Shown: positions 32,768-42,715 of the stretch, in pieces
Numbering within the stretch: position 1 is the first letter of the stretch
Layout of the letters: each line of letters opens with the position of its first letter
Origin: an uncultured Bacillales bacterium
GTDB lineage: Bacteria; Bacillota_I; Bacilli_A; RF39; UBA660
NCBI GenBank assembly: GCA_947564265.1
Contig: CANOBK010000007.1
Coordinates: forward strand, 38,529-102,528
DNA length: 64,000 nucleotides
Direction: 5' to 3'
Translations under genes and position numbers: made by a program
The notes under the pieces: generated by a model
Database searches by the model: none
The model's input: the letters and a program-made list of their open reading frames with translations, nothing else
Told to the model about the DNA's origin: nothing

Positions 32768-33526
32768 ATGCTAAAAGTAAAAAATTTGAAAAAGAAATTT
32801 ATTCGTTGGAATGAAAAAAAACAAAAGCAAGAATTTTATGCAGATAACGGAATTAGTTTTACTGCTAAGGAAGGAGAAATTGTAGGGATTCTTGGACCAA
32901 ATGGAGCGGGGAAAACCACACTACTTCGAATGATTGCAGGAATCCTTGAACCAACGGAAGGAACTATTGATTTTGATGGACTGAATTATCAAGAAAATGA
33001 AATAGAAATCAAAAAGAGTATCGCTTATTTATCAGGAAATACAAAAATCTATAATACGTTATCTACTTATGAGTTACTAACGATGTGTTGTGATTTTTAT
33101 GATGTTCCTAGTGAGGTTCGAGAAGGGAGAATTAAAGAAATTTCCAAAACCTTAGGAATGGAAGAGTTTCTTTATAATAAAATTGAACGACTTTCTACTG
33201 GACAAACACAAAAAGTCAATATCGCAAGATGTATGGTTCATGATCCTAAATACTATATCTTAGATGAAGCAACTAGCGGATTAGATATTATTTCTAGTCA
33301 GATTATTTTAGATTTTATCAAAGGGGAAAAGAAAAAAGGAAAGACAATTCTTTATTCAACCCATTATATGGAAGAAGCAGAAAATATTTGTGATAATGTC
33401 ATTATGGTAAATAAGGGAGTTGTGATTAAAGAAGGAACCCCAGAACAAATTAGAAAAACAACGAAAACAACGAATCTAAGAGATGCCTTCTTTGCTTTGA
33501 TTGGGGGTGTAAGTGATGAAGAATAA
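32768..33526 (+). CDS. ABC transporter ATP-binding protein (NatA-like)
   Basis: Walker A 'GPNGAGKTT', signature 'LSTGQTQKV', Walker B 'YYILDEATSGLD'. Confidence 0.88.
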   Translation: MLKVKNLKKKFIRWNEKKQKQEFYADNGISFTAKEGEIVGILGPNGAGKTTLLRMIAGILEPTEGTIDFDGLNYQENEIEIKKSIAYLSGNTKIYNTLSTYELLTMCCDFYDVPSEVREGRIKEISKTLGMEEFLYNKIERLSTGQTQKVNIARCMVHDPKYYILDEATSGLDIISSQIILDFIKGEKKKGKTILYSTHYMEEAENICDNVIMVNKGVVIKEGTPEQIRKTTKTTNLRDAFFALIGGVSDEE

Positions 33527-34664
33527 AATTTTTCATATGCTAAAAAAAGAAATCAGGGAAATGTTTCGAGATAAAAAATCATTATCGATGATGCTAGTTG
33601 TTCCGATTATGATTCCACTTTTGGTAATTGGAATGAGTGCTCTTTTTGAAATGCAAATGAACAAACCAGTAACCGACTATAATCGAATTGGTTTTGCTTA
33701 TGATTTAGGAGAAGTGGAAGAAAACCTTGCAAAGGAATTTGAAATAGATATCACTACAGGGGATGAAGAAGAAATTGAATCAATGTATCAAGATGGACTC
33801 CTTGACTTATATGTTACCAAGGAAAGTCAAGAATATACGATTCATGGGGATGATAATGACACAACCTCTTATGCCTCTTCCTTAGTAGAAAGCTACTTTA
33901 GTGCTTATAAAGAGTATTTACAGGGAGAGTATTTAGGAGACTATGAGATTGACCCTCAAGAAGTAATCAGTATTATTCAGGTAAATAAAGATATTGTAGA
34001 AAAAGAAAATTATTTTGCGAGCTACATTACCAATTATGCATTTTTATTCATTTTAATGGCAATTACTGTTTCAGCGACTTATCCATCGACGGATGCGACA
34101 GCTGGTGAAAAAGAACGTGGAACGTTGGAAACTTTACTTACTTTTCCAATTCGAAGTAAAGATATCATTCTTGGAAAATTCTTAAGTGTTAGTCTTTCTT
34201 CTGTAATTACTGGGATTATCAGTTTAATTTTAATGGTTATTTCTTTAGTAATTGCAGGTAACATGTTTGAAATTTATAAAGGAGTAGAAATGATGCTTCC
34301 TGTTAGCAGTTTAATTTTCTCAGGAATTGTTATTATCGCATATTCTCTTCTAATCAGTGGATTATGTATTGCAGTCGCTAGTAAATCAAAGACCTTTAAA
34401 GAAGCACAAAGTGCCCTAACACCACTTACCTTCATTTCTTTCTTTCCAGGAATGATTGCCTTTATGATTAACGTAGAAAGTAGTGCCTTACTTTCTTTAG
34501 TACCATTCTTGAATTTCTCTTTATTATTTACGGATATCACGAATGGAACAGTTAACTATATTAATATCTTCTTAATGTTGTTATCTACTATTGTCGTGAT
34601 TGGAATTGTATTGGGAATCATTATTAAGCAATATAAATCAGAAAAGGTTTTATTTTCAGAATAG
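33513..34664 (+). CDS. ABC-2 permease (NatB-like)
   Basis: Overlaps the upstream stop by 14 nt; N-terminal TM, large loop, then 5 C-terminal TM spans. Confidence 0.8.
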   Translation: MMKNKIFHMLKKEIREMFRDKKSLSMMLVVPIMIPLLVIGMSALFEMQMNKPVTDYNRIGFAYDLGEVEENLAKEFEIDITTGDEEEIESMYQDGLLDLYVTKESQEYTIHGDDNDTTSYASSLVESYFSAYKEYLQGEYLGDYEIDPQEVISIIQVNKDIVEKENYFASYITNYAFLFILMAITVSATYPSTDATAGEKERGTLETLLTFPIRSKDIILGKFLSVSLSSVITGIISLILMVISLVIAGNMFEIYKGVEMMLPVSSLIFSGIVIIAYSLLISGLCIAVASKSKTFKEAQSALTPLTFISFFPGMIAFMINVESSALLSLVPFLNFSLLFTDITNGTVNYINIFLMLLSTIVVIGIVLGIIIKQYKSEKVLFSE

Positions 34665-34743
34665 AAGTTAAAAAAGTATGTTGGATTAAATTTCTTCCAG
34701 AATACTTTTTTTATGTTATAATAATTGGAAAAGGAGAACAACT

Positions 34744-35970
34744 ATGGAGAAGGAAAAAGTAGTCCCATTACTTAAAAATGTATTTCCTCTAAACCAGGAA
34801 AGATTTCTAGTATTAAAAGAGGAGTCAGAGCAGCTTCTTCTTTATGATGAGATCAATCAAATCTATTTTGATATCAAACCCACGAATCAAGTGAGCAACT
34901 TTGTAACAAGTGACCTTTTTGGATTTCATATTGAATTAACTTATGAGAAAACGAATGGACTGAGTCGACAGATTGAAATGTTAGATACAGGAAAAATATT
35001 ATTGGATGAAATTCGTTTGGTGGAGGGAGAATACACAGCAACTTTTACTTCGAGTGAAAAATTAGTATCCTTTGAATTAGGTGAAGAGGAATTATTAGAA
35101 AAAGTAGTTTTTACTGGCTCTAATGAAATCACTCGGGTAGGAAATTACTATTTAGTAACTATTCCGAATCAGACTTACTTTGATATTTCTTTAAGAAAAG
35201 GAGAAGCAGAGATTTATACAGAACACCATGCTAAAAAATTAGATCAAGCGCTTGAATGTAATAGGATTAGAATAGCACAAGGTAAAAATAATAGAAATCA
35301 TATCGATACTACGACAGCAACAGAAGGAACTTGTAAGATTTATCGGATGACTTATATGGGAGAAGATGAACCAAATTATAGTAGTTATTTTATCTCTTCT
35401 GTTTCAGACGATTTAAATAGATTTAGTGAATGGGCACCATATCAATTTTCTAGTATAGATAATCCTTATCAAATTCTTCTTAGAGACGCAGAAACGAAAA
35501 AGGAAGAGATTATTTCCTATTTGACTTTTATGAAATGGAATCCAGACCATCTTCGATTAACGATTTTGAAAATGAAGGATGAATTTGAAATCTTTATTCT
35601 GGGTAGTGGAACGTATCATTGCACGAAACTTCCAGTTTTACATTCTAATTTGATTGATAGTGATGAACTTAAAATCCTTTGGGAATATTTAGAAACAGTG
35701 ATTACGGATTCTTCTTTTTTAGAAATCCTAAGTCAAGAATTGATTCATTTTTCCGATATCTTAAGACAAGAGTCGAAAGAAGATGTTTTAGATACCTTTT
35801 CGACAGAGAGTTTATTTAATCAAGGAATGGAAGAAACCAAAAGAATGATTTGTTCTAATCAAAATTCTGTAATAGAGCAGCTTTTAAAGAAAAGAAATTC
35901 TTTTGAATTAAACATTTCAAAAGAAAAAATAAAAGAATATAAGGATGAGATTCAAGGAGGAAAAAGATGA
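34744..35970 (+). CDS. Hypothetical cytoplasmic protein (408 aa), no recognised domain
   Basis: AAGGAG RBS; long uninterrupted ORF; its stop overlaps the SDR start (ATGA). Confidence 0.7.
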   Translation: MEKEKVVPLLKNVFPLNQERFLVLKEESEQLLLYDEINQIYFDIKPTNQVSNFVTSDLFGFHIELTYEKTNGLSRQIEMLDTGKILLDEIRLVEGEYTATFTSSEKLVSFELGEEELLEKVVFTGSNEITRVGNYYLVTIPNQTYFDISLRKGEAEIYTEHHAKKLDQALECNRIRIAQGKNNRNHIDTTTATEGTCKIYRMTYMGEDEPNYSSYFISSVSDDLNRFSEWAPYQFSSIDNPYQILLRDAETKKEEIISYLTFMKWNPDHLRLTILKMKDEFEIFILGSGTYHCTKLPVLHSNLIDSDELKILWEYLETVITDSSFLEILSQELIHFSDILRQESKEDVLDTFSTESLFNQGMEETKRMICSNQNSVIEQLLKKRNSFELNISKEKIKEYKDEIQGGKR

Positions 35971-36665
35971 AAGAAATTATAATTGTAAGTGGTGGAGCGA
36001 GTGGACTTGGTTATCACTTAGTGAAACAACTTTTAGAAAAAGGTTTTACTGTTTGTGCGATTGACTTTAATAAGAAAAAATTAGAAGAGTTAGAAAAAGA
36101 ATTTCATGAAAATTACTATTCTTTTTGTGGAGATGTATCTGATCAATTATTTGTAGAACAAACAATTTCAGAAATTTCTAAGATGGGAACGATTTCTGGA
36201 CTGATTAACAATGCAGGAGAGCCTTCTTTTAAAATGCCAAAGGACTATCAGAAGGAAGATATCACTCGTTGCTTTAAAGGATTAGAAGGAATGATTCTGT
36301 TAACTTCGAGAGTTTTACAAGCAACTTCTGAATCCAATGTAAAAATTATCAATGTTATGTCTTCTGCTGCTCTTAGAGGAAATCAACAAGAAAGTGTTTA
36401 TTGTGCAACAAAATGGGGTGAACGTGGCTATACAGAGAGTTTAAAAGTGGCTTATAAAGGAACGAGTGTCAAAGTAATTGGAGTTTATCCTGGAGGAATG
36501 GATACTGATTTTTATCAGAATAGTAGGGATTATGTATCATTAGAAAAACAACATACATTTATGAATCCAAAAGATGTCGCAGAGATTATGATTACTAATA
36601 TTTTTAATGATTTGAATTTAACAGTCAGTGATTTAATGATTGAACGGAATCCTAAGAAAGATTAG
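35967..36665 (+). CDS. SDR-family oxidoreductase
   Basis: 'IIVSGGASGLGYHL', 'NNAG', YxxxK as 'YCATK'. Confidence 0.85.
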   Translation: MKEIIIVSGGASGLGYHLVKQLLEKGFTVCAIDFNKKKLEELEKEFHENYYSFCGDVSDQLFVEQTISEISKMGTISGLINNAGEPSFKMPKDYQKEDITRCFKGLEGMILLTSRVLQATSESNVKIINVMSSAALRGNQQESVYCATKWGERGYTESLKVAYKGTSVKVIGVYPGGMDTDFYQNSRDYVSLEKQHTFMNPKDVAEIMITNIFNDLNLTVSDLMIERNPKKD

Positions 36666-36676
36666 AGGTAGAAAAT

Positions 36677-37393
36677 ATGTTAAACAAGAGAAATAAAGAA
36701 GTGAAAGAAAAGTATTACTTTGTGAAATTAAAAGGAGCAGGAGTATTAAGCATTCATGAAGAAAAAAATTTAAGTGAAGATGAGTATCATCCTGCTGAGG
36801 AAATTGAAACGGGATCTTATCAAAAACTAGTTGTAGAAAAAGGGGAAACTGGTAGTGCAGTTTATAATCTATTGGTTACTCCTGAAGAATATTCTGCTTT
36901 TCGATTTAAAACAATCAAATTTCAAAAAGCAAATAATGCTACTCTTGATGGATTTTCCTATGATAAAGAACATGGTATTGTTGTTTATGGAGTTATTGAT
37001 GGTATTTATGCGACAATGGAGAATGGAAAATGTTATGATGTAGTTTCAGGAGAAGTGATTCCATGGAGTATTATCTCTTATTATGTAGAAAGAGAAACTG
37101 TTGAACAACTGGAGGATATGCGTCATGATTTAGAAACGATTCATGGTCATGAGGATGTTTATATTCAATTAATGAGAGATCAATTTAAATTATTAGAAGC
37201 AGGAGAAGAAAATCTAAGAATCGCTACCAAAAAATACGAGGAAAAGTATGAACAGGCAATCAAACAATTAGAGGAAGAAAGGAATAAAAAACAACAACGG
37301 TATAAAGTTATCCTAAGACGGCAAAAGCCAATGATTTTATCAGAAAAATTAAAAATAAAACAGTTGATTGATACAATTAGAAGTAGTAAATAA
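36677..37393 (+). CDS. Unknown-family protein, tandem paralogue 1 of 3
   Basis: Shares 'YF.(V/I).L.G', 'EYH', 'LDGF.YDKE.G.V.YG...G.YA', 'YDV..G..IPW', 'RET' and a C-terminal Lys/Glu coiled-coil ending 'QLIDTIRSSK' with the next two ORFs. Confidence 0.75.
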   Translation: MLNKRNKEVKEKYYFVKLKGAGVLSIHEEKNLSEDEYHPAEEIETGSYQKLVVEKGETGSAVYNLLVTPEEYSAFRFKTIKFQKANNATLDGFSYDKEHGIVVYGVIDGIYATMENGKCYDVVSGEVIPWSIISYYVERETVEQLEDMRHDLETIHGHEDVYIQLMRDQFKLLEAGEENLRIATKKYEEKYEQAIKQLEEERNKKQQRYKVILRRQKPMILSEKLKIKQLIDTIRSSK

Positions 37394-37432
37394 TTTATAA
37401 AAATATTATGAAGAATAGTAGGTGAGCAATCA

Positions 37433-38146
37433 GTGGAACATAATGAGTTAGAAGAGGATTATTTTTTAATTCACTTAGAGGGATTGGGCAACAATCTTTT
37501 AGCAATCCAAGAGAAAAAACAATTAGAAGAGAAAGAATATCATTCGATCAGTCGGGAAGAAAGTGGTACTTATTCTATTTTGGTCGATATAGAAAAGAGA
37601 ACAGGCAGAAATATTTATTCTTTAGGAGTACATGAAGAGTGTTATCATACTTATCAATTTGAATCAGTCTCTTTTCAAAAAATAAATGACTTTGCCTTCG
37701 ATGGCTTTGAATATGACAAAGAAAGAAAAGTTGTCTTTTACGGATATATTTATGGTCTTTATGCGGTGAAAAGTGGTGATGATTATTATGACGTCATTAC
37801 AGGACAGAAAATTCCATGGGGAGTGATTCATACTGTATCAGAAAGAGAAACCAAAGATGATTTTGAAACTATGATAGAAGATTTAGAATTTATTCAAGGG
37901 CACAAAGATATTTATCTGAAGTTTATAGAAGAGGTACTCCGTCTGCTACAAGAAGGAGCAAATAATAGAGAAGCAGCAGTGACCCGTTATAGAAAAAATT
38001 ATCATGAAAAGAAACAACAAGAGGATTTTAAATTGAAACAGCAGCTAGAAAATGGAAAACGATTGCGCGAAGAAAGAAGAATAGAAAATGCTCCAAAAAG
38101 AGAAAAAGTAAAAGAATTAATTGATGGAATAAGAAACAGTGATTAG
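37433..38146 (+). CDS. Unknown-family protein, tandem paralogue 2 of 3
   Basis: AGGTGA RBS + GTG start; collinear homology to 36677 and 38190; ends 'ELIDGIRNSD'. Confidence 0.75.
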   Translation: MEHNELEEDYFLIHLEGLGNNLLAIQEKKQLEEKEYHSISREESGTYSILVDIEKRTGRNIYSLGVHEECYHTYQFESVSFQKINDFAFDGFEYDKERKVVFYGYIYGLYAVKSGDDYYDVITGQKIPWGVIHTVSERETKDDFETMIEDLEFIQGHKDIYLKFIEEVLRLLQEGANNREAAVTRYRKNYHEKKQQEDFKLKQQLENGKRLREERRIENAPKREKVKELIDGIRNSD

Positions 38147-38189
38147 AAAGACGAATAATTAAATTATATGAAGATAGTGAGAAAAGAAG

Positions 38190-38930
38190 ATGAATAAACA
38201 AGATTTAAAAGAAACATATTTTTTAATTCAATTAAAAGGCAATTTCGGTGAAATGTTAAGTCTTCTGGAAGAAAAAAAATTGTCAGAAAATGATTATCAT
38301 CCAATAGATGTCAATCAAGCAAGCATGTATCGCCTTTTAGTAGAGACACAAGCAGAGACTGGGAATAATATCCCTGCTTTAGGTGTATTTAAAGAACCTT
38401 ACAAGGACTATAAATTTGAATCTGTATTTTTTCAAATTGTAAATGACTTTACTTTAGATGGATTTTTATATGATAAGGAAAGAGGAGTCGTTTTCTATGG
38501 AAATGTTTCTGGACTGTATGCAGTAGAAAGAGATAATGCTTATTATGATGTAATTACAGATGAGAAGGTTCCGATAGAAGGAATTGATAGAGTTTCTAAA
38601 ATAGAAACTTTAGATCACTTTCTAAATATGGTAGAAGATTTGAAAATTATAGGAAAGTGTAAAGAAATTTATCATGAAGTTGTAGAAGAGGAACTTCGCT
38701 TATTAAAGGAAGGTGAAAATAATAGAGTAATTGCCCATCAGCGTTATAGAGATAACTACAATCAAGCAAAAAAGTTAGCTGCAGAAACAGAGAAAGCGAA
38801 AGAGGAAAAAAAACAGAGAGAGAAAACATGGGAAGAATATATGAAATCTGCAAAAGCAACTGAAAAGGTAATTGACTCTAAAAGAGAAGAGGCTAGTCAA
38901 TTAATTTATCAAATTCGAAATAATAATTAG
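38190..38930 (+). CDS. Unknown-family protein, tandem paralogue 3 of 3
   Basis: Collinear homology ('FESVFFQIVNDFTLDGFLYDKERGVVFYG..SGLYAV....YYDVIT'); ends 'QLIYQIRNNN'. Confidence 0.75.
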   Translation: MNKQDLKETYFLIQLKGNFGEMLSLLEEKKLSENDYHPIDVNQASMYRLLVETQAETGNNIPALGVFKEPYKDYKFESVFFQIVNDFTLDGFLYDKERGVVFYGNVSGLYAVERDNAYYDVITDEKVPIEGIDRVSKIETLDHFLNMVEDLKIIGKCKEIYHEVVEEELRLLKEGENNRVIAHQRYRDNYNQAKKLAAETEKAKEEKKQREKTWEEYMKSAKATEKVIDSKREEASQLIYQIRNNN

Positions 38931-38957
38931 AAAGTGATTTTATCATTTTCTTTTTTT
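38930..38957 (+). terminator. Rho-independent terminator
   Basis: GAAAGTGAT (38930-38938) / ATCATTTTC (38942-38950), one G-U pair, then TTTTTTT. Confidence 0.6.
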
Positions 38958-38971
38958 GAAGGAGGAATAAG

Positions 38972-39496
38972 ATGCAGGTAGTTCATCCACTATCACCAAT
39001 TTATGATGAAAATTCTAAAGTTTTGATTTTGGGAAGTATGCCATCTGTGAAGTCTAGAGAGGTTGGTTTTTATTATGGTCATCCCAAAAATCGTTTTTGG
39101 AAAGTTTTAGAAAAAGTTTATGAGGAAAAAATAGGAGAGAGTAAGGAAGAAAAGATTTTATTTTTAAAGAAACACCATATTGCCCTTTTTGATGTTTTAA
39201 AGAGTTGTGATATTGCCTCTTCTAAAGATCAATCTATTAAAAATCCAGTACCAAACGATTTTACTGAGATTTTAGAAAATACAAAAATAAAAGTGATTTT
39301 TACAACAGGAAGAAAGGCACAGGAACTGTATCACAAATACTGTTATCCGAAAACAAAAATAGAAGCCATCTATTTACCAAGTACTTCTCCTTGTAATTGT
39401 CCAAAAGGAATTGAGGACAAATTAGAGAACGCTTATAAAGAGATAAAGAAATATACGGAAAATTCTTTTTCCTCGTCTAAAAAAATGATAGAATAG
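38972..39496 (+). CDS. UDG-superfamily DNA glycosylase, family-6-like (DNA-deoxyinosine / hypoxanthine-DNA glycosylase)
   Basis: GAAGGAGG RBS; 'ILGSMPSVKSREVGFYYGHPKNRFW', 'LPSTSP'. Confidence 0.7.
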   Translation: MQVVHPLSPIYDENSKVLILGSMPSVKSREVGFYYGHPKNRFWKVLEKVYEEKIGESKEEKILFLKKHHIALFDVLKSCDIASSKDQSIKNPVPNDFTEILENTKIKVIFTTGRKAQELYHKYCYPKTKIEAIYLPSTSPCNCPKGIEDKLENAYKEIKKYTENSFSSSKKMIE

Positions 39497-39513
39497 TACT
39501 AAGGAGTGATTGT

Positions 39514-40143
39514 ATGAAAGTGTTATTAGCAACCACAAACGATGCAAAAATTAAATATTACGGAACAAGATTAAAAGAAAAGGGAATTAATCTTGTAACA
39601 TTAAAAGATTTAGAGATAGATGTTGATGTGGATGAAACGGGGAAGGATCCAATTGAAAATGCAGTGATTAAAGCAAAAACTTATTACGAAATTAGCCAAC
39701 TTCCTACGATTGCAATCGATGACGGATTATTTTTTGAAAATGTACCAGAAGAGGTTCAACCAGGAACCCATGTTCGTAGAGTGGGTGAAAAAAGACTGAA
39801 TGATCAAGAAATGATTGAACATTATATTAATCTTGTAAATCAATATGGTACAGATGGAAAATTAAATGGATATTTTTTAAAAGGAGTAGCAGTTGTAAAC
39901 GGAGAAAACAATTATACTTTTGACTACAAATCTAATCGTCACTTTACAAATAGGCAGAGTAATTTCTTAGATAAAGGATATCCTTTAGATTCAATTCAGA
40001 TTGTTGTTCCTATCAATAAATTTAAGTGTGAATTAACAAAAGAAGAGGAAGAGGCTACTTTAGGTATTGAAAAGAAAGAAATATTTGGATTTATTTTAAA
40101 AACAATTCAGGAAATAGAAAAGAGAGTTCTAAGAGAATGGTGA
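39514..40143 (+). CDS. Ham1/ITPase-like non-canonical purine NTP pyrophosphatase, divergent paralogue
   Basis: 'KVLLATTNDAKIKYY', 'ENAVIKAK', 'IAIDDGLFFENVPEEVQPGTHVRR'; lacks the C-terminal SHR motif. Confidence 0.65.
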   Translation: MKVLLATTNDAKIKYYGTRLKEKGINLVTLKDLEIDVDVDETGKDPIENAVIKAKTYYEISQLPTIAIDDGLFFENVPEEVQPGTHVRRVGEKRLNDQEMIEHYINLVNQYGTDGKLNGYFLKGVAVVNGENNYTFDYKSNRHFTNRQSNFLDKGYPLDSIQIVVPINKFKCELTKEEEEATLGIEKKEIFGFILKTIQEIEKRVLREW

Positions 40144-40152
40144 AATCATAGT

Positions 40153-40824
40153 ATGGAAATCAAAGATTTAAATAAAAAATATGATGTACTTCAAAAGAAA
40201 TATGGAGCTAAAGAACTTGATTCTATTTATAATGGAGGTTTAGAAGAAAACCCTGATATCTGTTTTGTATTTATGAATCCAACAGGAAGGAATATTGCCT
40301 CTACGAAAGAATGGAAAGGAAGAAAATCTCCCTGGATTGGTACAAAGAATATTTGGGATTTGTTTTATGCAATCGATTTAGTTGATGAAGATTTATATTT
40401 AGAAATCAAACAAAAAAAGGGAAGCGAATGGACGGAAGAATTTGCAGATATTGTCTATCAAAATGTGGAAGCACACCGTTACTTTATTACGAATTTAGGA
40501 AAATGTACACAGGTTGATGCTAGACCACTTCCAGATTCTGTTTATAAGGAATATTTAAATTTACTATATAAAGAGTTTGAAATTCTAAAACCAAAAGTTA
40601 TTATTCTTTTTGGAAATCAAGTGAGCTCTATTGTGTTAGATCAGAAAATTTCTGTTTCACAAAGTAGAAAAACCTGCTATGAGAAAAAAATTAAAAAAGA
40701 AACTTATAAATTTTACCCTGTCTATTATCCGATTGGAAATGGGAGATTTAATATTGATAAGTCAATTGAAGATATCAAATGGATTATGAAACAGGAATTA
40801 GGGAAGACGGAGGTAGTAAAATGA
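40153..40824 (+). CDS. UDG-superfamily protein, divergent (family 4/SMUG-like motif A 'FMNPTG')
   Basis: 'ICFVFMNPTGRN', 'ITNLGKCTQ', 'VIILFGNQVS'. Confidence 0.6.
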   Translation: MEIKDLNKKYDVLQKKYGAKELDSIYNGGLEENPDICFVFMNPTGRNIASTKEWKGRKSPWIGTKNIWDLFYAIDLVDEDLYLEIKQKKGSEWTEEFADIVYQNVEAHRYFITNLGKCTQVDARPLPDSVYKEYLNLLYKEFEILKPKVIILFGNQVSSIVLDQKISVSQSRKTCYEKKIKKETYKFYPVYYPIGNGRFNIDKSIEDIKWIMKQELGKTEVVK

Positions 40825-41300
40825 GTCATAAACCAGAACAAGTTAAAATGACGAATATGTGTATGATTATGGATCCTAAGACTGGAAAAGTGTTAGTTCA
40901 AAACCGGAATAAAAATGATTGGGATGGAGTTTCTTTTCCAGGAGGACATATTGAAAGAGGGGAACCAATTATTCTTTCTGTTTTCCGAGAAATATTTGAA
41001 GAAACAGGACTAAAGGTGAAAAATTTAGTTCCTTGTGGTTGTAAAGACTGGTATGATTATGAAAAAGAAGAACGATATTTAGTTTTATTTTATAAGACTT
41101 CTTCTTATGAGGGAAAACTTCTTCCAAGGTCGAAGGAAGGAGAAAACTTTTGGATGAGTATTGAAGAAATTAAACAGTCCGTTGTAGCAGAAGATTTTAT
41201 AGAGATGTTAGAAATTTTTACAGGGGATTCTCCTTATCAAGAATTTTTCTATGAGGATCATGGAGAAGAAGAACCTCGTTGGGTGAAAAAGTTTTATTAG
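40821..41300 (+). CDS. NUDIX hydrolase, MutT/8-oxo-dGTPase-like
   Basis: Perfect Nudix box 'GGHIERGEPIILSVFREIFEETGL'; ATG 40821 overlaps the upstream stop (ATGA). Confidence 0.85.
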   Translation: MSHKPEQVKMTNMCMIMDPKTGKVLVQNRNKNDWDGVSFPGGHIERGEPIILSVFREIFEETGLKVKNLVPCGCKDWYDYEKEERYLVLFYKTSSYEGKLLPRSKEGENFWMSIEEIKQSVVAEDFIEMLEIFTGDSPYQEFFYEDHGEEEPRWVKKFY

Positions 41301-41307
41301 GATATAA

Positions 41308-42033
41308 ATGATGGAAAGTAATAAGCAAGAGAAATTAGAACAGTTGTTTAGAGAAATGTCAAACTGTAAGAATTGTTGTCATTTAGTTAAGAAAAATGGG
41401 AAAGATTGTTCTTTAATCAACATTTATCAAGAACCTGAGTTTTATCAAAATATTCCTTCTATTTGGACGGACTGGTACCGAAGAGTAGATGCCGATATTA
41501 TGATAATTGGTCAAGATTGGGGACCTTATGAAGAAATGAAAAAATTTCATGATCAATATTTGCTTGATAAAACTCCTAATCATTGGAACTATCTAATAGA
41601 GGAAGAAAAAAGCATGACTAAAAAAATGTTAACGAAATATTTGATGGAGTCTTCTAAGGGTACGAATCATGAAATGAAGGAATCAGATATGAATCATATT
41701 TATGTTACGAATGCGATTATGTGTGCGAGAAAGGGCAATCATTATCGTGGGGATAATATTCAGCTAAAAGAATCAACGATCGGTTGTTCCCGCTTTTTAA
41801 AAAGGCAAATAGAGATTGTAAATCCTAAAATAATTGTAACATTAGGATACTATCCATTACTTTCTCTTTCTCATATTTTTCATTTTAAAATTGAAGATAA
41901 TTTGACAAAAACGATTGAAAAAATGCCTGAAATACAGGTTCAAAATTACCGGATTATTCCTCTTTATCATCCAACTGCGCAAGTAAATAAAGAAAGACAA
42001 ATCGCTCAGTATGAACGAATTTGGAAGAGTTAG
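41308..42033 (+). CDS. UDG-superfamily protein, family-4-like with N-terminal Cys cluster and variant motif A 'GQDWG'
   Basis: 'CKNCCHL...CSL', 'IMIIGQDWGP', 'VTNAIMCAR', 'PLYHPTAQ'. Confidence 0.6.
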   Translation: MMESNKQEKLEQLFREMSNCKNCCHLVKKNGKDCSLINIYQEPEFYQNIPSIWTDWYRRVDADIMIIGQDWGPYEEMKKFHDQYLLDKTPNHWNYLIEEEKSMTKKMLTKYLMESSKGTNHEMKESDMNHIYVTNAIMCARKGNHYRGDNIQLKESTIGCSRFLKRQIEIVNPKIIVTLGYYPLLSLSHIFHFKIEDNLTKTIEKMPEIQVQNYRIIPLYHPTAQVNKERQIAQYERIWKS

Positions 42034-42049
42034 GAAAGGAGTTGATAGA

Positions 42050-42715
42050 ATGGCTTGTGAAATCAAATATGTAGGAAAATATCGAAATGGAAAAGAAAAG
42101 TATTGGTGTCTTACTCATAAGGAAAAGGCTTCTGATAAAAATGGAACAAAACTTAAGGAATGTCTTTCTCCTAATAAATCTCTCTTTGATAAAAAAAGCA
42201 GATTTGAGTCATCAGAGGTACAATCAATTAAAATTATATTTCCTAATTTATTGAAAAGTAAATCTTTTCAGATATTAATGAATGGAAAAGAAGTCCCTGG
42301 TGTTTTTTCTATCGGAGATTCTCTTATAGAACCACAAAATTTTATCGGTTTGTTTCTAGCAAAGCTAAATGGAATCAAATTAGAAAAGGCAATTTGTTCT
42401 CATTGCGGACATCTTCATAATGATAATTCTCTTTTTGCGATTACTCCTCATAGAAAACATCTTTGTCATTATTGTGGCCATGAATTTTTCTGTAAGGAAG
42501 CAAATGTAGGAAGTGAATTTCTTGGTTATTTTGTGATTCCAGAAATTCAGTTAAAAAAGGCTACTCTCGAAATCAAAGAAACAGCATGTGTTACTTATGA
42601 CATTCTATCAGGAAAAGTTCTAGTAGATGATATGGAAGTAGATTCTGTTTTGATTGGAAAAGAAAAATTAGAAATTCAAAAATGGATTAGTCAAGCAATT
42701 TTAAGTAACCTATAA
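42050..42715 (+). CDS. Hypothetical Zn-ribbon protein
   Basis: AAGGAG RBS then ATG 42050; 'CSHCGHLHNDNSLFAITPHRKHLCHYCGHEFFC' (paired CxxC-type knuckles). Confidence 0.6.
   Translation: MACEIKYVGKYRNGKEKYWCLTHKEKASDKNGTKLKECLSPNKSLFDKKSRFESSEVQSIKIIFPNLLKSKSFQILMNGKEVPGVFSIGDSLIEPQNFIGLFLAKLNGIKLEKAICSHCGHLHNDNSLFAITPHRKHLCHYCGHEFFCKEANVGSEFLGYFVIPEIQLKKATLEIKETACVTYDILSGKVLVDDMEVDSVLIGKEKLEIQKWISQAILSNL

Follow-up and report, generated by a model that had tools for sequence, protein, structure and literature searches.

The 64,000-nucleotide stretch of DNA analysed here (hereafter the window, to which all window coordinates refer) belongs to an uncultured Bacillales bacterium with a 1.68-Mb assembly of 25 contigs and 30% G+C, and carries at positions 34744-38930 a row of five genes, the last three of which are tandem paralogues. 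These three paralogues are real, intact genes, and the protein family to which they belong is very small and has not been described. Rather than forming an obligate unit, the five genes are the interchangeable cargo of a slot framed by a promoter and a terminator-like hairpin, and the first two, encoding a 408-aa protein and a short-chain dehydrogenase/reductase (SDR), form a second cargo module, independent of the paralogues. In the interpretation favoured here, to which we attach about even confidence, the paralogues are a new, tiny family of non-enzymatic, self-associating binders that serve as accessory cargo of this variable slot.

The listing of open reading frames (ORFs) confirms what an earlier sequence-only reading of this DNA had described, namely five same-direction ORFs, the first two of which overlap by ATGA; all five lie on the + strand. 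Together with the elements at either side, they are laid out as follows:

34670..34711, + strand: intrinsic terminator of the upstream ABC-2 operon and left border of the slot, a 15-bp interrupted stem followed by a U-run
34714..34722, + strand: extended -10 box TGTTATAAT (TGnTATAAT), candidate promoter of the cargo, read in the sequence, with a poor -35
34744-35970, + strand: 408-aa orphan ORF (ORF listing)
35967-36665, + strand: SDR, 232 aa (ORF listing), overlapping the 408-aa gene by ATGA and translationally coupled to it
36677-37393, + strand: paralogue 1, 238 aa, of the slot-distal lineage
37433-38146, + strand: paralogue 2, 237 aa, with a GTG start and the ribosome-binding site AGGTGA, the copy used for the structure model
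38190-38930, + strand: paralogue 3, 246 aa, of the UDG-proximal lineage
38929..38957, + strand: A+U-rich hairpin followed by U7, which closes the slot on the right and sits just ahead of the ribosome-binding site of UDG

The gaps that separate the SDR and paralogues 1, 2 and 3 measure 11, 39 and 43 nt, respectively; a Shine-Dalgarno-like site is present in every one of them and a hairpin in none.

The flanks of the slot are syntenic in relatives, with an ABC ATPase and an ABC-2 permease on the left, UDG-Ham1-UDG on the right and protein identities of 82-91%. Between these flanks, the following contents were observed (G and L handles denote the genomes and loci compared):

G026: empty
G011: SDR alone, 73% identical
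L015 and L016: 408-aa gene and SDR without a paralogue, with an insertion sequence (IS) transposase upstream in L015
L013: 408-aa gene, SDR and one paralogue
window and L014 (GCA_948932945.1): 408-aa gene, SDR and three paralogues
G008: two paralogues only
G002: one paralogue only
G003: a shortened 176-aa copy, adjoining an RNB-domain protein and a GNAT

The independence of the modules follows from this series, since the 408-aa gene and SDR without paralogues, paralogues without either of them, and the SDR alone all occur.

The left terminator (-12.4 kcal/mol, z -2.9) is kept in the window, G026, G011, G008, G002 and L013, and in most of the variants, among them G026 with its empty slot, TATAAT stands at the same place; G011 has AAAAAT. 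At the right border, the terminator announced by the sequence-only reading is a weak hairpin (10 bp, -8 kcal/mol, z -1.0 in the window) which is not called by a terminator consensus scan; its position, however, is kept with changed stem letters in eight of eight variants (window, L056, L057, L010, L011, L013, L015 and L012). It is present regardless of the preceding cargo, and in the empty slot it lies about 60 nt from the promoter. Because promoter and terminator-like hairpin stay with the slot, the cargo is inserted into an expression frame that does not change, for which the earlier description of a row bounded by an upstream region and a terminator is fair. Standing before UDG, the right hairpin could also be a leaky terminator or an attenuator controlling the UDG/Ham1/NUDIX row.

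Conserved flanks, variable contents, an empty site, the swap of whole alleles and mosaic synonymous divergence (dS) are shared with flexible genomic islets. The slot differs from these in being tiny (0-4.2 kb), in its fixed promoter and terminator-like hairpin, and in a cargo without a known defence match. No integrase, recombinase or att-like repeats of the slot were found within the window.

The last three genes had been taken for paralogues by eye, and alignment bears this out: copies 2 and 3 share 50% identity over 195 aa (E 5e-63), slightly more than the four positions in ten first estimated, copies 1 and 2 share 39% over 235 aa (E 1e-52), and the three-copy alignment holds 64 invariant columns. 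Most of the shared motifs that had been listed are present, with the exceptions of 'EYH' and 'RET', which read DYH and IET in copy 3. No further copies were found in the source genome. The impression that the family was an unrecognised one also held in family libraries, PDB sequences and fold searches. Searches of Pfam, NCBIfam, PADLOC and PHROGs with the three window copies gave no match reaching any curated cut-off, and among 32 aligned members no family of Pfam, PADLOC or NCBIfam was matched by more than two. In a sequence-profile search of the PDB, the helical stalk alone was matched, at E 1.6 or worse (kinesin, designed helices). The stretch 'GLYAV..G..YYDVITGxKIP' resembles by eye the WG-repeat consensus of WG_beta_rep (PF14903), but a PF14903 search of the whole genome misses the three genes at E <= 0.01, and no member of the family is matched at E <= 1, so that this assignment was rejected.

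In 1.84 billion representative proteins, an exhaustive search with HMMER (based on hidden Markov models, HMMs) turned up no more than 39 clusters at E <= 1e-3. P0039 among them was discarded as a repeat artefact, and P0025 is likely a chimera with DUF5105; P0028 carries two full units per chain and P0032 one and a half, both being tandem self-fusions. The longer matches, being self-fusions, chimera or artefact, are thus uninformative as functional clues from fusion partners. A phage, plasmid or viral origin was likewise set aside, with no match in INPHARED, PLSDB or IMG/VR. Word-based searches and pattern scans also recovered very few relatives. The distribution is patchy, with 0 to 3 copies among relatives: carriers amount to 4 of the 29 species of the window's genus and, in the rest of its bacterial family, to 2 of 399 genomes, and none was found among about 350 genomes from elsewhere in the class. 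They include 'uncultured Bacilli bacterium MGBC...', 'Bacillales bacterium UBA7057' and 'uncultured Tenericutes bacterium', and all are metagenome-assembled genomes (MAGs) or metagenome contigs. As far as sampled, the protein family does not extend beyond a single family of uncultured Bacilli with small genomes, and several carriers are mouse-gut MAGs (MGBC stands for Mouse Gastrointestinal Bacteria Catalogue, PMC8763404).

Outside the slot clade, single members occur directly after pduL (L027, L034), after secA or beside the RF2 gene (L019, L047, L044), and convergent with the RNase HIII gene (L033, L035). No partner gene is common to the pduL, secA/RF2 and RNase HIII contexts.

In a maximum-likelihood tree, all slot copies form one clade (support 91/95) with two lineages. 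Paralogue 1 groups with P0012, the distal copy of G008 (G008_a) and the G002 copy (96/93). Paralogue 3 forms a clade with the L013 copy and the UDG-proximal copy of G008, G008_b (100/99), to which paralogue 2 is sister with weak support (83/67). The two lineages indicate that the array is old, with two ancestral copies, a second duplication of the proximal one and subsequent differential loss. Orthologous copies are 51-58% identical (51-54% between paralogue 3 and its L013 and G008_b counterparts) against the 82-91% of the flanks; by this measure, the rate of evolution is much higher in the cargo than in the flanks. Subgroups of the family are 25% identical to one another. In the comparison of the window with L014, each paralogue differs at 3-9 nt, and the ratio of non-synonymous to synonymous divergence (dN/dS) is 0.12-0.18, a value resting on very few differences, which indicates that the paralogues are maintained rather than decaying. 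Across 32768-41300, dS between these two sequences is a mosaic of 0.13 in the ABC ATPase, 0.22 in the SDR, 0.015-0.037 in the paralogues and 0 in two UDG genes, and this range from 0 to 0.22 points to several recombination tracts within 9 kb.

The structure of paralogue 2 was predicted with AlphaFold2. An alignment of 4 sequences gave an unusable model (pLDDT 44.6). Extra loci, recovered through a degenerate DNA pattern on the motif N-x4-DGF-x-Y-[DN]-x5-V-x-Y, extended the alignment to 16 sequences, with which the model reached a mean pLDDT of 94.5 and a pTM of 0.80. It contains two short strands (residues 10-15 and 23-28), a very long hairpin (38-57/69-85) and five short strands up to residue 138, followed by helices at 141-156, 158-218 (61 residues) and 220-235. 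This confident model has no fold neighbour in the PDB or BFVD. The slot copies have an acidic head (residues 1-140), with an isoelectric point (pI) of 4.3-5.2, and a basic tail (pI 8-10.6). Conservation is lowest in stretch 187-222 (12.8% mean identity, length 10-45 residues), which consists of 53-67% E/K/R/Q/D and 16-28% hydrophobic residues; the last 13 residues (VKxLIxxIRN) are conserved like the head (31.7%). Few hydrophobic and many charged residues argue for a charged single-helix spacer rather than a classical coiled coil, so that the Lys/Glu coiled coil seen by the sequence-only reading stands as a long charged helix and is unlikely as a coiled coil in the classical sense. The overall layout would be a Tyr-rich acidic beta/alpha head (about 1-186, including a beta-hairpin of about 20 residues), a helical spacer rich in E/K/R and a conserved C-terminal amphipathic helix, read as a docking helix. 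The proteins are cytoplasmic and without a recognisable catalytic motif.

Some adaptors are built from a globular head, a charged single alpha-helix (ER/K) as spacer and a C-terminal docking helix. The paralogue model shares with them the 61-residue helix, its charged and variable distal part and the short conserved C-terminal helix; the likeness would be purely architectural, without homology.

In the second module, the 408-aa protein is equally isolated in family libraries. It is acidic (pI 4.9) and lacks a signal peptide; it has no match in Pfam, NCBIfam, PADLOC or PHROGs, its best match in the PDB is to histidine-kinase helices (E 0.019), and its homologues number seven in 5.8 billion proteins. 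Its gene occurs in 1 of the 29 genus genomes and is followed by the SDR both in the window and at each of the seven further loci with this gene (L013-L018). Residues H161, C172, H186 and C197 are invariant in all seven homologues and might form a metal site. A relationship to the paralogues was rejected (hhalign probability 0.3%); the C-terminus 'SFEL..KEKIKEYQ' faintly resembles their 'KEKVKxLI', a similarity that is insignificant by the same comparison. A DDE_Tnp_1 IS-type transposase lies directly upstream of the 408-aa gene, in place of the ABC genes, at L015:440-1246 and L017:131-1033.

Apart from the 408-aa gene, the window and the L014 strain are about 99% identical. Nucleotide identity between them is at least 95% in all 100-nt bins except for three stretches, located at 34701 to about 36100 (53-85%), at 36501-36600 in the SDR gene (87%) and at 39601-39700 in the Ham1 gene (82%). 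The two 408-aa proteins are 52% identical as compared with 94-99.7% for the flanking proteins, which amounts to a whole-allele replacement of the 408-aa gene. The replaced tract, window 34744-36100 versus L014:2152-3500, extends ~100 nt into the SDR gene. Public data contain at least six allele classes of the hypervariable 408-aa gene, with 52-85% mutual identity. The SDR itself is a classical one, as had been recognised from its sequence, with adh_short at 9e-38 above the cut-off and the motifs GGASGLG and YxxxK (Y-CAT-K); its best PDB relatives, 3l6e and 3guy (E 1e-24), are SDRs bearing a generic family name only.

Under the favoured interpretation, in which the paralogues are binders carried as accessory cargo, genes would be gained, lost and exchanged in the slot that separates the ABC-2 permease from the UDG/Ham1/NUDIX cluster, presumably as the conserved flanks recombine homologously. 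The array would derive from at least two old copies, distal and proximal, the latter being duplicated again before species-specific losses. The fused units of P0028 and P0032 and the recurrence of tandem copies, e.g. in G008, hint at a dimeric or hetero-dimeric function; the paralogues may thus act as homo- or hetero-dimers, and each might recognise a fast-changing partner of its own. The role would be accessory. That it is a role in conflict, such as defence against phages or mobile elements or an immunity-like function, is a tentative extension to which we give a minority of our confidence; it would fit the rapid divergence, the patchy distribution and the variable copy number.

Several observations weigh against this interpretation. 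The fixed places of family members beside housekeeping genes in other genera look more like a cellular protein specific to the lineage and inherited vertically than like a mobile defence gene, and a dN/dS below 0.2 between close strains reflects purifying selection, not an ongoing arms race. No defence model of PADLOC was matched by the window proteins or the 32 members, and no toxin-like neighbour was found in any of about 15 loci, in agreement with the earlier remark that no toxin was evident. The neighbours of the slot are ABC transporters and genes of DNA repair and nucleotide sanitation, which do not make it a defence island. Finally, the statement that the predicted fold is without a match covers the PDB and BFVD, and the model behind it was built from 16 sequences. 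In a bolder version, the paralogues would have a new fold and define a new class of recognition proteins which evolve fast, associate with themselves and possibly serve defence or immunity in uncultured gut Bacilli; they would be delivered via a mini expression slot with the 408-aa alleles as a second specificity determinant. This version is put forward here as a speculation which we consider unlikely.

Among the alternatives, the paralogues may be a lineage-specific housekeeping or structural protein, for instance a cytoskeletal, division-site or chromosome-associated adaptor, which has become unrecognisable by divergence in most relatives and has been amplified here without special meaning. 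Purifying selection, the fixed position beside secA/prfB, pduL or rnhC within sub-lineages and the head-spacer-docking-helix layout typical of adaptors speak in its favour, and at 25% identity between subgroups an HMM search may miss distant members. However, of about 430 genomes searched in the bacterial family only 6 were found to carry it, and two of the six closest species lack it, their slot having no contents or just the SDR; an essential function would not tolerate such loss. This alternative is given a low probability.

Somewhat less probable, in our judgement, is an orphan immunity-gene array, in which each paralogue would neutralise a different polymorphic toxin or bacteriocin-like effector, from competitors or from elsewhere in the genome, and the array would collect specificities. 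Like the orphan clusters found downstream of LXG/Rhs/CDI toxins, the paralogues are tandem, divergent, small, cytoplasmic and fast-evolving relative to their flanks, vary in copy number from 0 to 3 among relatives and are patchily distributed; moreover, two ABC modules of the peptide-resistance type immediately precede the slot. They differ from such arrays in that no linked toxin (LXG/WXG/RHS), secretion or trafficking gene adjoins the family in the loci inspected, and in that single copies reside in other genera among housekeeping genes. Immediately upstream, no cognate toxin gene or remnant was found, this place being taken by the SDR, the 408-aa orphan or the ABC permease. Furthermore, most known immunity proteins are smaller and simpler than the paralogues, which measure about 240 aa and have a long helical stalk; neither the sequence nor the predicted fold of the paralogues resembles immunity families in Pfam or the PDB, libraries in which they have no match.

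The remaining alternative, raised by the sequence-only reading, is that all five genes serve one small-molecule pathway or complex, with the SDR modifying a metabolite and the 408-aa protein and paralogues acting as accessory subunits; shared direction, tight spacing, the ATGA overlap, a single promoter and terminator-like hairpin bounding the row and the recurrence of the same five-gene row in GCA_948932945.1 and of a three-gene version in a metagenome of the Joint Genome Institute (JGI) fit it, but the two modules are separable cargo and are found separately in relatives rather than as a conserved set of five, the SDR also stands alone, the family lives in unrelated contexts in other genera and the 408-aa protein is unrelated to it by profile comparison, which leaves one functional unit unsupported and a shared pathway, the least likely explanation for paralogues whose modules occur apart, highly improbable.

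The row to the right of the slot shows some variation of its own. In G008 only, a 388-aa ORF without a Pfam match (L010:6990-8156) lies between the first UDG and the Ham1 genes, a second small variable point. A metallo-beta-lactamase-fold gene with Pfam matches including Anti-Pycsar_Apyc1 is located within the UDG/Ham1/NUDIX row at L013:12671-13477 and L012:3133-3936. At the end of the UDG/NUDIX row of the window, a 234-aa Cys/His-rich ORF with several CxxC/HxxC pairs (42011-42715) has no Pfam match at E <= 0.001.

The practical impact is modest for now, the family being tiny and all of its carriers metagenome-derived. If the model is right, the paralogues would represent a protein family and a fold without a described relative, in uncultured gut Bacilli for which there is almost no experimental biology. 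The locus is a clean natural example of a very small slot: close relatives retain its promoter and terminator, and the genes in between have been exchanged, duplicated or lost. As genes at sites of this kind are usually subject to conflict or niche-specific selection, the cargo is a reasonable place to seek functions in defence, immunity or host interaction.

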